Shown in pieces: positions 24,731 to 56,084 of a stretch of 64,000 nt of DNA (position 1 is its first letter; every line of letters begins with the position of its first letter). The notes below the pieces were generated by a model. The model worked only from the letters and a program-made list of their open reading frames with translations. It did not search any database and had not been told where the DNA came from. A program made the position numbers and the translations under genes. This DNA comes from a bacterium (lineage in GTDB: Bacteria > Patescibacteriota > Minisyncoccia > UBA6257 > HR35), in assembly GCA_041640295.1 (NCBI GenBank), contig JBEQAR010000001.1, forward strand, positions 16,453 through 80,452. Direction: 5' to 3'.

Positions 24731-27349
24731 TTATCTTGTTGTAGAATTTTGGGTTGCGGATAATATCTTGATTTCTATTTCATTACTTTTTCTTCCATCA
24801 TCACTTAAAAGGAGTAATTTATATTCGCCTGGTAAAATTATAGTTAATGCAAAGCAGATAGAGTCAGATGGATTAAAAGAATAACATCTAGCAACTGATC
24901 GAGGAAATGAAGATATTTCTATAGTATTATTATCTATAACTTTGAAATTATCTATATAACCACTATAAACACTAATAGTATCCGGTGAATTAGAATATTT
25001 TCCTTTTACCTCTATAACTAATCTATTAGCTGTTTTGAAATTTTCTCCTTTAATTATTACCTTATCACCAGGAAGAATTGCTTGTGGGTCTATAGAAAAT
25101 ATCTTTAATTCTTTAACATTATACATCAAATCGGGTTTAAGATCCCCTCTTTTACCAAAATTATTTAAGACAATCCTAAGATCTTTATCATCAATTTTAT
25201 TATCTAAGTTTAAATCATATCTTATCCCATTTTCTTTTAGAACATCTTGACCAAAATTAAAGGTAATATTCAAAATATCGCTATCATTAATAACATCATC
25301 ATTATTAGTATCACCATTAGTGAGATATATTTTATCAGTATAATTAAGAGAAATAATTTTCCTAAAATGACTTAAAAAATGAGGAAATTGAAAACTAACT
25401 GCAGGATCAGAGCATTTAGGAATCTCTATTGAGCCCTCATAACTACGATTAGCTAAATTAACATTAATTCTTTTTTGATTATAAATAGTATTTCCACAAT
25501 AAGTAGTAATAGTTCCTTCAGTAATTACATTTTTAGCAGTATCAGCTATATCATTAAAGTAAAGAACAAAATTATAATTTTCAAAAGTTCCTACTTCGTC
25601 ATCATAAATTTCAAATTCAACTCTATTACTTTCTTTATTATAAGCATTAATTACAAAGATTTCATATTTTCCTACAAATTGTTCTTTAAACCATTTATAT
25701 CTACTAGTTTCATCAAAGAAAGCTTGTGGTTCACCTTGTGTAAGAAGACAAATTATTGGGTTATTAATATCATAATCAGTAATACTACAACTAGTCATAT
25801 TAAGAGCATTCAAAGCTGTAACATAGATTTTATCATAAACACCTATAAGATCATTGATTGGCGGTGTTTTGCCAGTGCTAGCTATAAAATCAAAAGTTCT
25901 TTGATTATCTTTTTTAACAAACCTTAATATATTTTGTTGCGTAAAACCAGTACCTTCTAATGTTAAACTTGTTATAGGCATATTACCCATAAAGCTTTTT
26001 AGTGATATTCTTTTAGGATAATAATTATCTATTCTAGGTATAATATTTAAATCTTCCTGACATTCTTCATATTCTTTGTTTACCATTATTTGAATTATTT
26101 TTAATGTTTCACCAGAAACTATACCATTAGCTGGTAATTGATAAAATCTTTGAAATTTTTTAACTGCTCCCTCGGTTAATCTTCCAAAATAACCAGTTAT
26201 TAACCTCTCGGGATAAAATCCTTTATTAGTTAAAATTAATTGAAAAAGATAAACTTCATTTCTACGATCACCTCTTTTCATTTCTGGTAAATCACAAGAT
26301 ACTTCAGGACTACCAGGTAATTCATCAAGAATTATTGTTCTTTTAGATTTTGGAGTTTCTTTATTAACAATCTTAAAATAAGCTGAATCAAAATAACCAC
26401 CTATAAAATAATTATTCTCTAAAGTTGGCTTATAATGTCTAATATCTAAATCATAATATTTTTCAAGTAAATATAAAGGGAAAACTGAAAACCTGATTCG
26501 GTAATTACCATTTTGAATATATTCAGGTATAGTCCAATCATAAGATCGTTTAAAAATCGGAACTTTGGCAATATGAGTTACATACCCTCTATCAGAAACT
26601 AAATCAAGAGAAAGGGTTTGAATAGGAAGATAAAAATAAGTTTGATTTTCTGTAGGAAAAACTGAATATTGATCAGAACCACCTCCTTGAGGAATATAAT
26701 TTTGAGATGATGTGCTTGAAATCTGATGACGAGGTGCTTCTAAAATACTACTAGTTGATTCGCTTTCAACTTGAGGATTTCTACCAGACATTGGTTGAGC
26801 TACATATTCCCATTCAATAGTGTAAGTTTGACCGACATACCAAGTATCATTAGCTTTAGGAGAAAGTACAGTTAAAGAAAAATTATTTCTCGGCGAATAC
26901 AATAAATCAGTTTCTTGTGGTCCTACTGTTGTTTCCGCTCTTTCTGGTAATTTTGATCCTCCCGCTGATGTTTCTGCTGGTGTTCTTAATTCTCTTCCTT
27001 TTGTTTCTTGAGTAAATAGAGGAGAAAGAAGACTTAAGATCACCTCAATAGTTTTTTTATCTAATTTTCCAGTTGTAGGTAAATCAAATCTTTTTTGAAA
27101 TTCTTTTAAGGCTTGAACTGTTTGATTATCAATTTGACCTGTAATTTTTAAATCTTTCTTATTCAAAGTTTCTCTTAATAATTCTTGAACAAAACGAATG
27201 TCATTAACAGTTGGTTGCTTTTCTAATTTTAATTTTAATTGATTAACATCGGTAATTTTTTTGGTTGGCGTTGAAGTTTGCGCAAAACTTAAATTAAAAA
27301 CTATAATAGAGATCAATAAAAATATATAAATCTTAATAAAACTTTTCAT
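24731..27349 (-). CDS. Large secreted protein with two peptidoglycan-binding (PG_binding_1-like) domains and a dockerin-type calcium-binding repeat pair
   Basis: The 872-aa product has a signal peptide (SFA-QT). PGBD-like segments are VNDIRFVQELL...ALKEFQKRFDLPTTGKLD and VYLFQLILTNKGFYP...VKKFQRFYQLPANGIV. Dockerin-like repeats are GDTNNDDVINDSDILNITFNFG and DLNLDNKIDDKDLRIVLNNFG. Confidence 0.55.
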   Translation of the reverse strand: MKSFIKIYIFLLISIIVFNLSFAQTSTPTKKITDVNQLKLKLEKQPTVNDIRFVQELLRETLNKKDLKITGQIDNQTVQALKEFQKRFDLPTTGKLDKKTIEVILSLLSPLFTQETKGRELRTPAETSAGGSKLPERAETTVGPQETDLLYSPRNNFSLTVLSPKANDTWYVGQTYTIEWEYVAQPMSGRNPQVESESTSSILEAPRHQISSTSSQNYIPQGGGSDQYSVFPTENQTYFYLPIQTLSLDLVSDRGYVTHIAKVPIFKRSYDWTIPEYIQNGNYRIRFSVFPLYLLEKYYDLDIRHYKPTLENNYFIGGYFDSAYFKIVNKETPKSKRTIILDELPGSPEVSCDLPEMKRGDRRNEVYLFQLILTNKGFYPERLITGYFGRLTEGAVKKFQRFYQLPANGIVSGETLKIIQIMVNKEYEECQEDLNIIPRIDNYYPKRISLKSFMGNMPITSLTLEGTGFTQQNILRFVKKDNQRTFDFIASTGKTPPINDLIGVYDKIYVTALNALNMTSCSITDYDINNPIICLLTQGEPQAFFDETSRYKWFKEQFVGKYEIFVINAYNKESNRVEFEIYDDEVGTFENYNFVLYFNDIADTAKNVITEGTITTYCGNTIYNQKRINVNLANRSYEGSIEIPKCSDPAVSFQFPHFLSHFRKIISLNYTDKIYLTNGDTNNDDVINDSDILNITFNFGQDVLKENGIRYDLNLDNKIDDKDLRIVLNNFGKRGDLKPDLMYNVKELKIFSIDPQAILPGDKVIIKGENFKTANRLVIEVKGKYSNSPDTISVYSGYIDNFKVIDNNTIEISSFPRSVARCYSFNPSDSICFALTIILPGEYKLLLLSDDGRKSNEIEIKILSATQNSTTR

Positions 27350-27566
27350 AGTTATTTAAAAATTTAATTTAATTCCCGACTTTCTTAAATTATATTACTA
27401 TAAAAATCCGATGTCAAATTTTATTATATAGTTATTGCCATTATAAAGAATTTACAAAAAGGGTGGATAAATTTGTATAAATTTTAATGGGTTTTTATTA
27501 TATTATTAGAATTATAAACTTCGCAAGTAGATGGGATTGAGAGAGGTAGCTTAATATTATTGGATT

Positions 27567-51465: not shown

Positions 51466-52587
51466 TTAAATTTTTATTTCTTTCTTAATTTTCTCAACAA
51501 AATAAACAGGTAAAAAGAAAGCAAAAAAAGTAAACCAAAGTAAACCTCCTGCTATAGACATACCCCCTAAAATACCAATAAATTCTTTTATTTTCTCCCA
51601 ATTAGGATGTTTTATAAAATCTTTTCCTTTCTCTTTTTCTTTTTGAATCTCTCCCAAAAGTTCTCCTATTTGCTTCATTCCTTCTAAATACTGATTTAGC
51701 TGATCGGGGGGTAATTTTTTTAATTCTTCAAAATCTACTTCAGATAATTTTTCAAGATTTCTAATAATTCCATCTACCTCTTTTTCTGCTTCTTCCTCCC
51801 TTTTACCTTCTTCAATTAATCGTTTTTTTAAAGATTGTCTTAAGTCTTTTAGTTTCTTTTTAAAGCCATTACTAATAGTATCCCAATATTTTTCTATATC
51901 CTCAATTGATTTTATTCTTGCTAAACAAAGGTTTAAAAGTTCAACTTGCCATCTTTCATGAACTTGTGGAATTGCGATTTCAAGATTTAAATTTCTTGTT
52001 TTATCATCTATTGTCGTTATAGATATTAAAATAACACCTTCTTTATTTAAAATCTTAGAATACCACATTAGCTCATCAAAAGAAGCTTCTTCTAAAAATT
52101 TTTTAACCCTCTCGTTTCCCACAAGATCTTCCCTATTTAAAATAAAAACACCCAAGCATAATCTAAAAACTTCTTCAATTTTTCCTTCATTTTTTTGAAA
52201 GATAAGTGTACTTGCAATAACTTCAGTAGGTGTTGTGATTTCCATTTCAGTTAATCCTGTAGTTATTATACCAACTCCTTCTATTTTCAATTCTTCTAAC
52301 AAACCCACTACATTTTCAAGTTCTGCTCTAACATATTCGTCGAAAAATTTTCCTGATACTTCATCAGTCCTAACTAAACTTACTAAATCTTGATACTTCT
52401 CATACAATCTTTCTATTTTTTCTTTAATCAAGTTTTGTAAATCTCTCCCCTCTTGACTTGGTTGAACTTCTTGTTTATGTTCCTCAAAAGAAGGTTGTGT
52501 TCCGCTTTCAGTCATTGTTTGATCACGAGGATTAGTTCGGGACCTACCTCTTCTACGCGATTGGTCAGGATTAAATCTTGCTGTCAT
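51466..52587 (-). CDS. Hypothetical coiled-coil protein with a C-terminal TM anchor
   Basis: The 373-aa product has a basic, disordered N-terminus, long helical E/K-rich regions and a C-terminal hydrophobic helix. It sits behind a TGTGTTATAAT extended -10 motif. Confidence 0.45.
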   Translation of the reverse strand: MTARFNPDQSRRRGRSRTNPRDQTMTESGTQPSFEEHKQEVQPSQEGRDLQNLIKEKIERLYEKYQDLVSLVRTDEVSGKFFDEYVRAELENVVGLLEELKIEGVGIITTGLTEMEITTPTEVIASTLIFQKNEGKIEEVFRLCLGVFILNREDLVGNERVKKFLEEASFDELMWYSKILNKEGVILISITTIDDKTRNLNLEIAIPQVHERWQVELLNLCLARIKSIEDIEKYWDTISNGFKKKLKDLRQSLKKRLIEEGKREEEAEKEVDGIIRNLEKLSEVDFEELKKLPPDQLNQYLEGMKQIGELLGEIQKEKEKGKDFIKHPNWEKIKEFIGILGGMSIAGGLLWFTFFAFFLPVYFVEKIKKEIKI

Positions 52588-52762
52588 TTAATTATAACAC
52601 AAAATTGGATTAAAAAATTAATTAATATAATTATTATAACACAAAATTATAATTATTATAAAATTATATTTTTTTCTTATTTTAAAAATAAAATTAAAAT
52701 GGAAATGAAATTTTAGTTAAATATTTTTAATTTAATTATTGAAATTTTCTAATAAATAAACC

Positions 52763-52801
52763 AAAAAACCGCCGGCGGGGATTGTACCCACATCCGGCGG
52801 T
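52763..52801 (-). terminator. Rho-independent terminator of the Pro-rich small gene
   Basis: A GC stem (A)CCGCCGG pairs with CCGGCGG(T) around an 18-nt loop at 52768-52801, followed on the minus strand by a T6 tract. Confidence 0.6.
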
Positions 52802-52818
52802 GTACTGAGATAACCCCC

Positions 52819-53097
52819 CTAAGGGGGTGGCTGGGATGGTGAGGGTGGTGGGGACGGGGGTTGGGGGTGGTAGTCCTGGTTACGGACCACCACCCGGTTC
52901 TCCTGGGCAGTCGTGCTTACAGTGATACTACCCAACTGACCCCGCTGCCAGCCACCCTCAACCAACTCGGCACTCTTTTGGAGAGCGCCGAGAGAATCGA
53001 AAGAGTTGGAGGGGGGGCGGCTGCGACGGCCCGCCATAATAAGGGCAGCAATTGCCGCTGTCCCAGACGCCCCCGCTAAAATCCAAAGAATTTCCAT
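52819..53097 (-). CDS. Small high-GC gene: N-terminal TM anchor plus Pro-rich C-terminus (92 aa)
   Basis: The ATG at 53097 is preceded by GGAGGTG 7 nt upstream. The product is MEILWILAGASGTAAIAALIMAGRR...PQPPSPPPSPSQPPP. GC content is far above the window average. Confidence 0.5.
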   Translation of the reverse strand: MEILWILAGASGTAAIAALIMAGRRSRPPSNSFDSLGALQKSAELVEGGWQRGQLGSITVSTTAQENRVVVRNQDYHPQPPSPPPSPSQPPP

Positions 53098-53118
53098 TTT
53101 TTAGCACCTCCGTTTATT

Positions 53119-53146
53119 ATTATACTACAAAAAATTTTTTTGTCAA
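53119..53146 (-). promoter_or_regulatory. Near-consensus sigma70 promoter (TTGACA-N16-TATAAT) driving the Pro-rich small gene
   Basis: On the minus strand the -35 TTGACA (plus strand 53141-53146, tgtcaa) and the -10 TATAAT (plus strand 53119-53124, attata) are 16 nt apart. The SD GGAGGTG lies at 53105-53111. Confidence 0.6.
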
Positions 53147-53150
53147 GTAT

Positions 53151-53187
53151 AAAAAAGGCGCCCATTAATGAGCGCCTTTAAAAAAAA
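53151..53187 (-). terminator. Intrinsic terminator hairpin flanked by A/T tracts on both sides (bidirectional) after the collagen-like gene
   Basis: AAAGGCGC-ccattaatga-GCGCCTTT forms an 8-bp stem at 53154-53179, with A6 and A8 tracts either side. Confidence 0.6.
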
Positions 53188-53189
53188 TG

Positions 53190-53582
53190 TTACTCCTCTT
53201 CCCTGGCCATCAGGCCCAGAAGGAGTAACAACCCGAATACCTCGGCGGCGAGAATGCCGGCGAGGACGCCGGGCAGGGGGTCGCCCGGGTCCCCTTTTGG
53301 ACCCGGCGGACCCTCAGGTCCTCTTGGCCCTTGCGGGCCAAAAGGACCAGCAGGTCCTCTTGGCCCTTGCGGGCCACGAGGGCCCCTCAATTTCTCCCGA
53401 ACCTCCTTGTCCGGGAGAACTAGTTTATCCCACTCCGCATCCTGCGGAGTGGTCCCGCCTCTCTCAATGCGGGCGGGGAGGACAATGGTTCCCTCGGCCC
53501 CCTTCTTCTCCTGAGCCAGGGCGACCGAGAAAGAAGTGAGAAGAAAAAGACCACTAAGGCCCAGGATTAAAATTAACCTCAT
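53190..53582 (-). CDS. Collagen-like (G-P-X)n repeat surface protein with a signal peptide and C-terminal TM anchor, high-GC
   Basis: The start is placed at the ATG at 53582, which has GGAGGTG 6 nt upstream; the ORF track starts at the GTG at 53591. The product has a signal peptide ([11 protein letters not shown]), 11 uninterrupted Gly-X-Y triplets ([33 protein letters not shown]) and a C-terminal hydrophobic helix. Confidence 0.6.
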
Positions 53583-53601
53583 ATAGTTCACCTCCGTTTT
53601 A

Positions 53602-53630
53602 ATTATAACACATCAATTTTTCTTTGTCAA
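53602..53630 (-). promoter_or_regulatory. Consensus sigma70 promoter (TTGACA-N17-TATAAT with extended -10 TGTGTTATAAT) driving the collagen-like gene
   Basis: The -35 is at plus strand 53625-53630 (tgtcaa) and the -10 at 53602-53607 (attata), with a 17-nt spacer. The SD GGAGGTG is at 53589-53595. Confidence 0.6.
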
Positions 53631-53868: not shown

Positions 53869-54099
53869 TTAGCCCCATACTTTTCTCCAAAAATCTTTTT
53901 CTTCAATTTGAGCTAATTTTAGTATTCCTTTTATAGTTCCAGGGGCTAATTCTTTATGAAGGGGAACTATTGTTATAATCTCTTGTTTATCAACTTGCTT
54001 TTTTAATTTCACATGGCTACCTTTTTGAGAAATAAAATAAAAACCAAAATTTTTACACAAAATCTTAATCACTTGCCTTCCCGAGAGTGGCTTATACAT
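53869..54099 (-). CDS. hicA: HicA-family mRNA interferase toxin
   Basis: The 76-aa product (SGRQVIKILCKNFGFYFISQKGSHVKL...TIVPLHKELAPGTIKGILKLAQI) matches the HicA dsRBD-like fold and the conserved GSH motif. Confidence 0.75.
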   Translation of the reverse strand: MYKPLSGRQVIKILCKNFGFYFISQKGSHVKLKKQVDKQEIITIVPLHKELAPGTIKGILKLAQIEEKDFWRKVWG

Positions 54100-54310
54100 T
54101 CTCTAATTCAAGAGTAGTTATCAAAGGAGCATTTTTAGGAAGAGATTTTTTGATTTTTGGTTGATCTTCTAAATATAATTCAACAGCCTCTTTAAGGTTT
54201 TTTTGAGCATCCTCAATTGTTTTTCCTTGACTTACTACACCTAATTCAATACATCTAGCTACATACCATCTTCCTTCTTTAATAATAATTGTGGTGAACC
54301 GATAGGCCAT
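54092..54310 (-). CDS. hicB: HicB-family antitoxin (RNase H-like fold, no DNA-binding extension)
   Basis: The 72-aa product YRFTTIIIKEGRWYVARCIELGVVSQGKTIEDAQKNLKEAVELYLE matches the HicB/UPF0150 core. It overlaps hicA by 8 nt. Confidence 0.7.
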   Translation of the reverse strand: MAYRFTTIIIKEGRWYVARCIELGVVSQGKTIEDAQKNLKEAVELYLEDQPKIKKSLPKNAPLITTLELENV

Positions 54311-54989: not shown

Positions 54990-55211
54990 TTATTTATTTT
55001 GCAAAAAACTATCTAAATTTTGAGAAATTATATTTAAAATGTAAGTTAATAAACCGCCGCATTTTGCCCGCGTTCTTTTATTTTTGTACCAATCTTTAAA
55101 TTCATCTTTGTATTTCTTTCTTAGGTACCGAGCTTGTATTTCTTCCCATTTTATTCCTTCCTCCTGTAAAAATTCATTCCATTCTTTTTCTAGTTTTGAT
55201 TGATCTTCCAC
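54990..55211 (-). CDS. Hypothetical basic protein (73 aa from a GTG start); it lies in the same frame as the upstream 257-aa ORF
   Basis: The ORF is in-frame with 55311..56084, with only the TAG at 55311-55313 between them. The 99-nt segment after that TAG (55212-55310) is also an open reading frame. Confidence 0.3.
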   Translation of the reverse strand: MEDQSKLEKEWNEFLQEEGIKWEEIQARYLRKKYKDEFKDWYKNKRTRAKCGGLLTYILNIISQNLDSFLQNK

Positions 55212-55310
55212 CTCTTCTAATATACCGCCTGCTTCCTTAAAAGAAATATTTTTTCCCGAATCTGCGATTCCGTATAATATATCTGAAAGAAGTTCCCTTC
55301 CTCTTTCGTT

Positions 55311-56084
55311 CTAACTTGCAAACACTGCTTCAGCTATCATTTTTCCAATTTCTTGTAGGTTATTATCTATTTCCGCTAACTTTGTTTGAACTTCTTCAAT
55401 TCTATCTAATTGTTCTGCTCTTCCTCTACTAAATCTCCCCCCGAACATATCTCTTAATTTACCAATTATACCAAGATGAGCTCTTACCAATTCTTGAAGA
55501 TTACCTCCTGAAGCATAAACTCTACTTAATTCTTCTATTGGTATGTTGTACTCTTGAGCTAATGCTCTTACCTGGGCATTAAGACTTTCATATGTTTGTT
55601 CTTCTTTTTTAATATTTTCTAATTTCTCTCTTAATTCCTTGAAATTATCTTGATTCAACATATACAATTCTGCTAAATAATTTTCCAAAAATGTTCTTGT
55701 TTTCTCAACTCCTATTTGATTTACAATTTGCCTAAATTCAGGTGATATAGAAGCAAGATATTCAATTCGCTCTTTGGGCAATAAATCTAAAACTTCTTTT
55801 GTAGCATCTAAACACTCTTTAATTTTTGATCTTGCTTGTTCTAAAAAATCAAATTCTGCCTTTTCTAAGGTTTGCCTATTGAGCAATTTTTCTAGTAATT
55901 TATCTTTATCTATTCCTTGAGGAAGTTGGGTGGTTTCGATATATATCTTTAATAAATTCGATTGAAGTCTGTCGCTTAAAATCTCTTCAACCGTAGGTGG
56001 AATTCCACTAGTGCTTTCTCTATATGCTTCAACTTTTTGTTGTTCTTGCTTCTTTCGATATTGTTCAAAGGGTTTTTCTAACAT
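55311..56084 (-). CDS. Hypothetical coiled-coil protein translationally coupled to rpmG
   Basis: The 257-aa helical product has its ATG at 56084, 4 nt after the rpmG stop. Its own stop is a TAG. Confidence 0.45.
   Translation of the reverse strand: MLEKPFEQYRKKQEQQKVEAYRESTSGIPPTVEEILSDRLQSNLLKIYIETTQLPQGIDKDKLLEKLLNRQTLEKAEFDFLEQARSKIKECLDATKEVLDLLPKERIEYLASISPEFRQIVNQIGVEKTRTFLENYLAELYMLNQDNFKELREKLENIKKEEQTYESLNAQVRALAQEYNIPIEELSRVYASGGNLQELVRAHLGIIGKLRDMFGGRFSRGRAEQLDRIEEVQTKLAEIDNNLQEIGKMIAEAVFAS

Follow-up and report, generated by a model that had tools for sequence, protein, structure and literature searches.

Why should two small genes with a G+C content of 61% stand in a bacterial genome of 27% G+C, and what keeps them that way? 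The question is raised by a stretch of 64,000 nucleotides from a member of the Patescibacteriota (GenBank assembly GCA_041640295.1, contig JBEQAR010000001.1, positions 16,453 to 80,452), hereafter called the window, in which a GC-rich island at 52763–53630 is confirmed to hold two minus-strand single-gene expression units. The first codes for a collagen-like membrane protein (gene 1) and the second for a small single-pass membrane protein (gene 2), and an AT-rich gene of 373 residues, referred to as the partner gene, lies directly downstream. An earlier reading of the bare sequence (the original prediction) had described the island as possibly horizontally acquired or phage-derived, with a mis-assembly as the other possibility. 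The explanation that we favor, and consider probable though far from assured, is instead that of a native, vertically inherited and conserved envelope module of a Parcubacteria-type lineage (Candidate Phyla Radiation, CPR), the coding sequence of which is maintained in a GC-rich and strongly folding form.

Composition of the island and its recurrence in other assemblies

Two of the checks suggested with the original prediction, a sliding-window G+C plot and a comparison of codon usage, set the island apart. With windows of 150 nt, a G+C content of 0.48 or more is reached in only two segments of the 64 kb, namely the tRNA cluster at 1321–1720 and the island at 52721–53610, the latter being the sole protein-coding island of this kind; the bin 53001–53500 has a value of 0.57, compared to approximately 0.27 for the window. 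The G+C content of third codon positions (GC3) is 0.62 in both genes, as against 0.147 ± 0.026 (maximum 0.23; z of approximately 18) in the 51 host open reading frames (ORFs), nine ribosomal-protein genes among them, that served as the codon reference. The amino acid composition combined with host codon usage would predict merely 43–44% G+C for both genes, and the codons used in the island (GGC/GGG, CCC/CCG, GCC/GCG, CTC/CTG and GAG, each 1–14% of host usage) are the rarest of the host. The enrichment ends at the edges of the coding regions. Both flanks are AT-rich, and so are the 60 nt of intergenic promoter sequence; even the first ten or so codons are AT-richer than the remainder of the gene.

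A change of composition this sharp is what would be seen if reads from a GC-rich organism had been joined into an AT-rich contig, and nothing else speaks for such a chimera. The island is present with the same junctions and the same gene order in at least 19 contigs of independent assemblies, produced with independent assemblers (copies were taken from NCBI GCA_900098825.1 and GCA_964468575.1, from ENA and from several Logan runs), and its neighbors in these copies are HicB/HicA upstream and the 373-residue gene, tRNA-Thr and a DUF763 gene downstream. The same architecture is also found across nine distinct lineages. Because the locus recurs independently, the chimera is refuted and we assign it practically no weight; the genuine integration for which the original prediction had argued is borne out. 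The exact sequences of both proteins were not on record, and near-identical variants were turned up by homology search.

Comparison of the window with one of these population copies (L003) gives 99.86% identity over 14 kb, with five of the six mismatches and three of the six gaps falling inside the 1-kb island. The copies further differ by a 12-nt deletion in the signal peptide of gene 1 and by a 9-nt insertion or deletion in the proline-rich tail of gene 2; both are in frame, as are all population variants of gene 1. At 53331–53387 (minus strand) the 25-nt sequence GGCCCGCAAGGGCCAAGAGGACCTG occurs twice, 36 nt apart, and its upstream copy reads GGCCCCAGGGGCCTCCAGGGACCTG in all other population copies, so that a 24-nt repeat tract in the window equals the downstream repeat copy, which points to intragenic conversion.

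The clustering of differences and the overwritten repeat tract are what would be expected if the composition had arisen without adaptive value, through recombination or GC-biased gene conversion at a hotspot rich in repeats, where Gly-X-Y repeats recombine and biased repair raises the G+C content. We regard this as unlikely, since the rise halts at the coding edges and leaves the AT-rich intergenic promoter region and the first ten or so codons untouched. Gene 2, which is non-repetitive, and the tails found in the single-gene forms described below are, moreover, as GC-rich as the repeats, gene 2 keeps its enrichment where it is inverted in a relative, and the order of codons folds better than shuffles with equal codon counts.

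Gene order, silent sites and the question of transfer

Homology search defines a family with a signal peptide, a head of the form PARxERGG-x7/8-WDxLxxP, 11–17 Gly-X-Y triplets, a GDPxPG motif and a membrane helix. Orthologues with 38–54% identity were found at the same chromosomal spot in the hot-spring genome Candidatus Parcubacteria KatS3mg095 (L010; 51% identical) and in eight other AT-rich lineages. The source of KatS3mg095 was hot-spring sediment at 52 °C (PMC9671151). Its gene order is that of the window, reading gyrA, a 172-residue gene, L33, a 370-residue gene, a 99-residue gene, the collagen-like gene, gene 2, the partner gene, DUF763 and MscS, and its module likewise comprises two separate cassettes, a promoter, a ribosome-binding site and a terminator being present in each. 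Further split forms occur in L036/L037 (gene 2 inverted), L129, L130 and L131. In L011–L014, L034/L035 and L039/L040 there is a single gene for a protein of 217–226 residues, in which the collagen part and the membrane helix are followed by approximately 90 residues of cytoplasmic tail.

The companions of the collagen-like gene are conserved along with it. Homologues of gene 2, recognizable by an MEI/VLW..AG helix and an RR(R) motif, adjoin the collagen gene in L010, L036, L129 and L131; the tail diverges fast across lineages. A homologue of the partner lies directly 3' of the collagen-like gene or genes by alignment in L010, L011 and L014, and by eye, from the conserved C-terminal anchor, in L034 and L039. 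In L036 (1238–3526) a calcineurin-like phosphoesterase domain (Pfam Metallophos, E 1.9e-15) is fused to the N terminus of the partner, which may point to a function connected with a phosphatase on the side of the module that faces the cytoplasm, and in L129 an ORF of at least 508 residues is a candidate for the partner by its position. As an observation apart, LemA is encoded upstream of the long-form collagen gene in L011, L014, L034 and L039, and a gene for an M48 (HtpX-like) peptidase lies directly upstream in L011, L014 and L039 and 3' of the partner in L034; this conserved neighborhood has no counterpart in the window.

The composition itself has been maintained over the history of the family. 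The ten family genes at ten loci (nine distinct lineages) have 53–64% G+C in contigs of 25–30% G+C. At conserved degenerate sites the codons of orthologues differ in a fraction of 0.59–0.81, and a random draw gives 0.69–0.78; because these differences match the expectation of a random draw, silent sites are saturated. The GC3 of the orthologues nevertheless remains at 0.40–0.68, compared to approximately 0.15 in the host, and gene 2 of L036 is still GC-enriched in its inverted position. Saturated silent sites together with a persistent GC3 therefore mean that leftover composition from an old transfer cannot explain the island.

The idea of a recently acquired foreign or phage-derived island, as raised by the original prediction, thus fails on several counts, and we hold it to be very improbable. 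Its appeal lies in the atypical composition, in the adjoining HicAB toxin-antitoxin pair and the tRNA-Thr 1.5 kb away, and in the fact that collagen repeats are common in phage tail fibers. Atypical composition (G+C 0.61 against 0.27, GC3 0.62 against 0.147) is indeed one of four features by which a recent acquisition would be recognized, and islands left by horizontal transfer share both this and the sharp borders seen here. The other three are absent. Presence is not patchy, the gene being found at the same chromosomal position in the 51%-identical KatS3mg095 and beside the same partner gene in L010, L011, L014, L034, L036 and L039, and there is no decay toward the composition of the host, the contrast in G+C being seen in every lineage found in spite of saturated silent sites. 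Unlike a transfer island, the locus is conserved in place, follows coding borders and carries no mobility genes: its neighbors include no integrase or transposase, no convincing att-like flanking repeats were found (AT-rich low-complexity repeats only), and no phage genes lie nearby, the neighbors being housekeeping genes. The promoters are of the AT-rich type of the host.

The head motif leads to the same result, as it was found in no homologue from a GC-rich genome or a virus. It is missing from 80 viral loci, and matches to viral contigs, PHROGs and the Scl and Lcl models cover the generic Gly-X-Y stretch only. A degenerate DNA pattern for PAxxERGG-7/8 residues-WD gave 19 matches among the GTDB species representatives, all of them chance matches in GC-rich genomes and without a collagen repeat. 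The HicA toxin/HicB-like antitoxin pair (53869–54310, minus strand), which lies directly upstream of the island, is missing at the same spot in L010, and because of this absence it is taken to be a lineage-specific insertion outside the module.

Expression signals and folding of the transcripts

The two self-contained cassettes with optimal signals that the original prediction described are found as stated, with consensus promoters, GGAGGTG sequences and terminators all verified (Table 1), and by these signals each gene would form a self-contained sigma-70 expression cassette in which a single ORF is flanked by promoter, ribosome-binding site and terminator. Perfect TTGACA/TATAAT matches number three in the 64 kb, two of them in the island, as against a chance expectation of 0.12, and GGAGGTG occurs six times with 1.3 expected. 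(The third perfect promoter, TTGACA-N17-TATAAT at 27389–27417 on the minus strand, stands 5' of an 872-residue ORF at 24731–27349.) Equivalents of the promoter are also present in the orthologous cassettes of L010, L036, L011, L014 and L039, and the pattern TTGAC[AT]-N15-19-TA[TCA]AAT fits nine of the ten cassettes taken from seven genomes; the long form of L034 has TTGACA with a TATAGT −10 box, as judged by eye. A near-identical TTGACAAAAAA(A)TTTTTT promoter precedes gene 2 of L010 and the long-form genes of L011 and L014. High expression of both genes is plausible on the strength of these signals.

An element shared with the neighboring gene, TGTGTTATAAT, had also been noted in the original prediction. 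It is real, with three copies in the window, every one of them within the island locus, and is simply the local extended −10 type of promoter. In the region upstream of the partner gene (52588–52648, minus strand), the −10 box of the proximal copy ends only 3 nt before the annotated ATG, at which no Shine-Dalgarno sequence is visible; possible solutions are that the distal copy is the promoter, that a leaderless mRNA begins at another start, or that translation really starts at the ATG of codon 25.

The G/C-ending codons have a clear consequence for the predicted folding of the mRNA. The start region of gene 1 (−25 to +35) folds with −8.3 kcal/mol, compared to −27.7 kcal/mol for 60-nt windows of the gene body, and over the family the corresponding ranges are −3 to −13 and −11 to −28 kcal/mol. 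Relative to dinucleotide shuffles, whole transcripts reach z-scores of −7.7 and −6.5. When the shuffles preserve both the protein and the codon counts, the collagen cores still fold better in all ten cases (z −2.8 to −5.3), while under the same shuffle five host genes give −0.2 to −1.8 and four unrelated viral collagen genes +1.4 to −2.2 (mean of these controls −0.9; Mann-Whitney p = 1.4e-4). Shuffling within blocks of 25 codons gives −1.4 to −4.0 for the collagen cores and +1.4 to −1.7 for the controls (p = 0.012). The four long-form tails have individual values of −1.7 to −3.7.

Hairpins also seem to be shared. In the head-coding region of six orthologues, 87.9% of the cells of 22 predicted pairs are paired, compared to 43–50% with the partners slid, and seven of the pairs change on both sides; as the alignment of six sequences also supplied the structure, this test of covariation is suggestive only. 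The invariant motifs of the protein are themselves encoded by complementary RNA, with CCCCGC/GCGGGG for PA..RGG and UGGGAU/AUCCCA for WD..(I/V)P, and in the long forms a hairpin is conserved close to where the transcript is predicted to begin.

Two further explanations are concerned with what the unusual codons do. In the first, G/C-ending codons that are rare in the host would be selected for slow translation, which could aid membrane targeting and insertion or the nucleation of trimers by nascent chains, with mRNA folding secondary. The codons of the island are the rarest of the host and both products are membrane proteins, as this would require. The explanation does not, however, predict an excess of folding over shuffles that keep the codon counts, nor the compensatory changes seen in the conserved hairpins; promoters and ribosome-binding sites of consensus type suit an output that is maximized rather than throttled, and the other membrane-protein genes of the window are AT-rich. 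We therefore consider slow translation rather unlikely.

In the second, the transcript would have another structural or regulatory function as RNA, with the reading frames riding on it. In AT-rich genomes of thermophiles, GC-rich islands classically mark genes for tRNA, rRNA and other structured RNAs, and the present island resembles these in its sharp rise of G+C and in folding far above shuffles, the only other island of the window being a tRNA cluster. The very negative z-scores, the coincidence of conserved hairpins with invariant protein motifs and the origin of one relative from a 52 °C spring would all fit. Unlike such islands, this one is clearly protein-coding and matches no Rfam family, with covariance models at gathering score returning tRNAs only for the window and six related loci. 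Constraint on the protein is strong, as seen from the glycine periodicity, the signal peptide, the membrane helix and the in-frame insertions and deletions, and the nucleotide sequence is otherwise saturated between orthologues. Such a function of the RNA is in our estimation decidedly improbable. Biased conversion, slow translation and a second RNA function each account for only part of the data.

Taking the native module as the preferred reading, G/C-ending codons would yield a strongly folded mRNA, kept by selection acting on the transcript, the most likely advantage being an mRNA that is long-lived (heat-stable) and hence gives a high protein yield. In its general form, that a few small envelope genes of AT-rich, hot-spring-associated Parcubacteria are kept G/C-ending by selection on the folded transcript, be it for extreme mRNA stability or heat resistance or for a second role of the RNA, the proposal is put forward tentatively. 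A second small unit of raised G+C in L011 (1076–1327; G+C 0.47 and GC3 0.54 in a contig of 27% G+C), encoding an 83-residue protein with a zinc-ribbon-like CxC...CxxC pattern, suggests that a set of small genes may share this property. Units of this type are also present at approximately 1341–1650 in L014 and 1391–1600 in L039; the L011 unit matches no Rfam family and is without a homologue in the window. The terminator of the 83-residue gene (L011, 1330–1370), GGTAGGCGTGGGGAGTTCGATCCCCTGCCTACC and then a T-run, is similar to the minihelix formed by the acceptor and T arm of a tRNA.

The predicted envelope module and its counterparts

Table 1. Features of the island and of the adjoining partner gene, with positions in the window.
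Feature	Position	Strand	Details
Promoter of collagen-like gene, TTGACA-N17-TATAAT	53602–53630	−	12/12 consensus; TGT directly 5' of −10 box (extended −10)
Shine-Dalgarno sequence of collagen-like gene, GGAGGTG	53589–53595	−	6 nt 5' of ATG
Collagen-like membrane protein gene (gene 1)	53190–53582	−	ORF, 130 residues from ATG; G+C 0.61, GC3 0.62
Signal peptide of collagen-like protein			residues ~1–24
Conserved head, PARxERGG-x7-WDxLxLP			before the triplets
Gly-X-Y triplets (12)	53277–53384	−	residues 67–102
GDPxPG motif			conserved in the family
C-terminal membrane helix	53274 to ~53196	−	residues ~103–129
Intrinsic terminator of collagen-like gene	53154–53179	−	11-pair stem, T-run
Promoter of gene 2, TTGACA-N16-TATAAT	53119–53146	−	12/12 consensus; A/T-only spacer core AAAAAATTTTTT
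Shine-Dalgarno sequence of gene 2, GGAGGTG	53105–53111	−	7 nt 5' of ATG
Gene 2, small single-pass membrane protein	52819–53097	−	ORF, 92 residues; G+C 0.61, GC3 0.62
Parts of gene 2 product			N-terminal small-residue-rich helix MEILWILAGASGTAAIAALIMAG; RRSR; cytoplasmic part of ~65 residues with Pro-rich tail at end
Intrinsic terminator of gene 2	52763–52801 (approx.)	−	ACCGCCGG...CCGGCGGT stem, then TTTTTT; from sequence and predicted fold
Two AATTTTGTGTTATAAT copies, extended −10 promoter type	52591–52643	−	5' of partner gene
Partner gene	51466–52587	−	373 residues, AT-rich; mostly helical cytoplasmic protein with C-terminal membrane anchor ..LLWFTFFAFFLPVYFVEKIKKEIKI

The protein of gene 1 agrees with the secreted, C-terminally anchored collagen-like protein of the original prediction, except that its uninterrupted Gly-X-Y triplets, mostly Gly-Pro-Arg/Gln/Lys, number 12 rather than the 11 first counted. 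With 27.6 bits it passes the cut-off of Pfam Collagen PF01391 (27.2 bits), which makes it a predicted member of the collagen-repeat family, and after cleavage of the signal it would be approximately 106 residues long. Positions P36, A37, E40, R41, G43, W51, D52, L54 and the glycine columns are invariant in the family alignment; the glycines recur at every third position across 19 homologues while their codons vary. An AlphaFold monomer model is confident solely for the repeat and the membrane helix (103–129). An ORF on the opposite strand (53168–53539, plus strand) was considered as a gene and rejected, as it is open because GC-rich sequence is poor in stops and its frame is lost in L010. In the copies from NCBI and Logan, gene callers have chosen this antisense ORF (119–123 residues) over the collagen-like gene, and gene 2 is often omitted.

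The gene 2 product likewise has the N-terminal membrane helix and proline-rich tail that had been described for it. Its residues 1–78, compared by phmmer with 1.84 billion representative sequences, retrieved itself and two spurious repeat proteins only. The partner protein matches neither Pfam nor NCBIfam, and a homology search with its 373 residues gave two matches only, being swamped by low-complexity candidates. For the three-protein module as a whole no description was found in Pfam, NCBIfam or the literature, where searches on collagen-like proteins in Parcubacteria or Patescibacteria and on GC-rich recoded genes returned nothing relevant.

In the arrangement we propose, the product of gene 1 would be a type I membrane protein in which a Gly-Pro-X run of 36 residues assembles into a homotrimeric collagen stalk of approximately 10 nm, fixed in the cell membrane by the C-terminal helix. 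The product of gene 2 would be a single-pass partner with its N terminus outside and its C terminus inside, and would provide the cytoplasmic tail that is built into the collagen protein in the single-gene forms. Because the collagen gene of sister lineages carries such a tail after the membrane helix, the unit probably links the extracellular stalk to a cytoplasmic tail, and the products of gene 1, gene 2 and the tail-anchored partner gene may together form a membrane-spanning complex, which could serve as a spacer or adhesin of the envelope.

Several points weigh against this reading and the selection proposed with it. Because gene 2 matches the single-gene tails only weakly in a comparison of profiles (hhalign, E 0.008 over 14 columns), we infer only from the architecture that gene 2 is a split-off tail. 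The AlphaFold models of the head domain and of the partner (pLDDT, the predicted local distance difference test, of 45 without an alignment) are not confident. Twelve triplets would make a short triple helix, which may not be stable at hot-spring temperature, and the C-terminal motif, helix and charged end of the short form could be a cleaved sorting signal. As for the folding, two family members overlap the controls under local shuffles, and the signal is weaker in the five gene 2 homologues (z −0.2 to −5.3), which do not differ significantly from controls as a group (p = 0.12). High expression alone cannot explain the composition, because the ribosomal-protein genes of the window are without it (GC3 at most 0.23), and the terms "highly expressed" and "stable mRNA" are themselves drawn from signals and from folding predictions at 37 °C.

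Among known proteins, Scl1/Scl2, Lcl and BclA are similar in having an uninterrupted Gly-X-Y run rich in proline and charged residues after a non-collagen head, which is expected to aid the register of the three chains, and in a surface location that is here predicted. The present family is much smaller, with 12–17 triplets in approximately 130 residues as compared to hundreds of residues, and has a head motif (PARxERGG-x7/8-WD) of its own. Its anchor is its own C-terminal membrane helix instead of LPXTG and sortase as in Scl, the LPXTG motif being absent from the C terminus. BclA is attached to the exosporium and has a C-terminal globular domain; no trimerization domain of that type is present here, where the collagen region is followed by the membrane helix and then the stop. 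A small membrane partner and a tail-anchored cytoplasmic protein accompany the collagen gene in this family, unlike in the others. The NCBIfam models NF038330, NF038329 and NF046116 (Scl1/Scl2, Lcl) give 24–36 bits for the family against cut-offs of 325–500, in the repeat only (24–25 bits over residues 65–107 for the window protein). Phage tail fibers have similar Gly-X-Y repeats, with PHROG matches spanning residues ~41–110 at most (tail-fiber profiles ~64–102) and no match outside the repeat, and the gene here stands among housekeeping genes in conserved order. Of the hit classes expected in the original prediction, Scl models and phage tail fibers were returned, through the generic Gly-X-Y stretch alone. 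The protein appears to belong to the broad collagen-repeat class and lacks what defines Scl1/Scl2, Lcl, BclA and phage tail fibers.

A parallel in function may be Lpp of E. coli, a very small and abundant trimeric rod of the envelope that is encoded in a single-gene unit with a strong promoter and terminator, and whose mRNA has many stable hairpins and a long half-life that supports very high abundance. The likeness is a functional analogy only, with a coiled coil and lipid anchor in Lpp and a collagen helix and membrane helix here, no relationship in sequence, and an abundance and mRNA stability that are here predicted.

Outside the module, the window has TAA at 55311–55313 (within 54993–56084, minus strand) where L003 has CAA (Gln258), which splits a conserved hypothetical gene of 364 residues into ORFs of 257 and 73 residues; a nonsense polymorphism and a sequencing error are the two possible causes.

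The rule that horizontal transfer can be read from a sharp compositional island clearly does not hold for this locus, as its atypical composition predates the saturation of silent sites and follows the borders of the coding regions. It also provides a natural replicated case, in nine distinct lineages of uncultured organisms, of selection on the silent sites of single genes, with mRNA folding or stability as the likely target. If this is true, there would be a class of "hard-wired stable mRNAs" that gene finders misread as antisense ORFs and transfer detectors as foreign. The family is largely invisible in databases, as pipelines call the antisense ORF or skip gene 2. The very short Gly-Pro-Arg-rich triple helices predicted from a 52 °C habitat could be of interest for collagen-mimetic design. 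For the organisms themselves, Patescibacteria that are possibly symbionts of others (PMC9671151), a previously unrecognized module emerges, in which a minimal collagen stalk anchored in the membrane is combined with a small membrane partner and with a cytoplasmic protein that has a tail anchor, and which may be a major component of the envelope.

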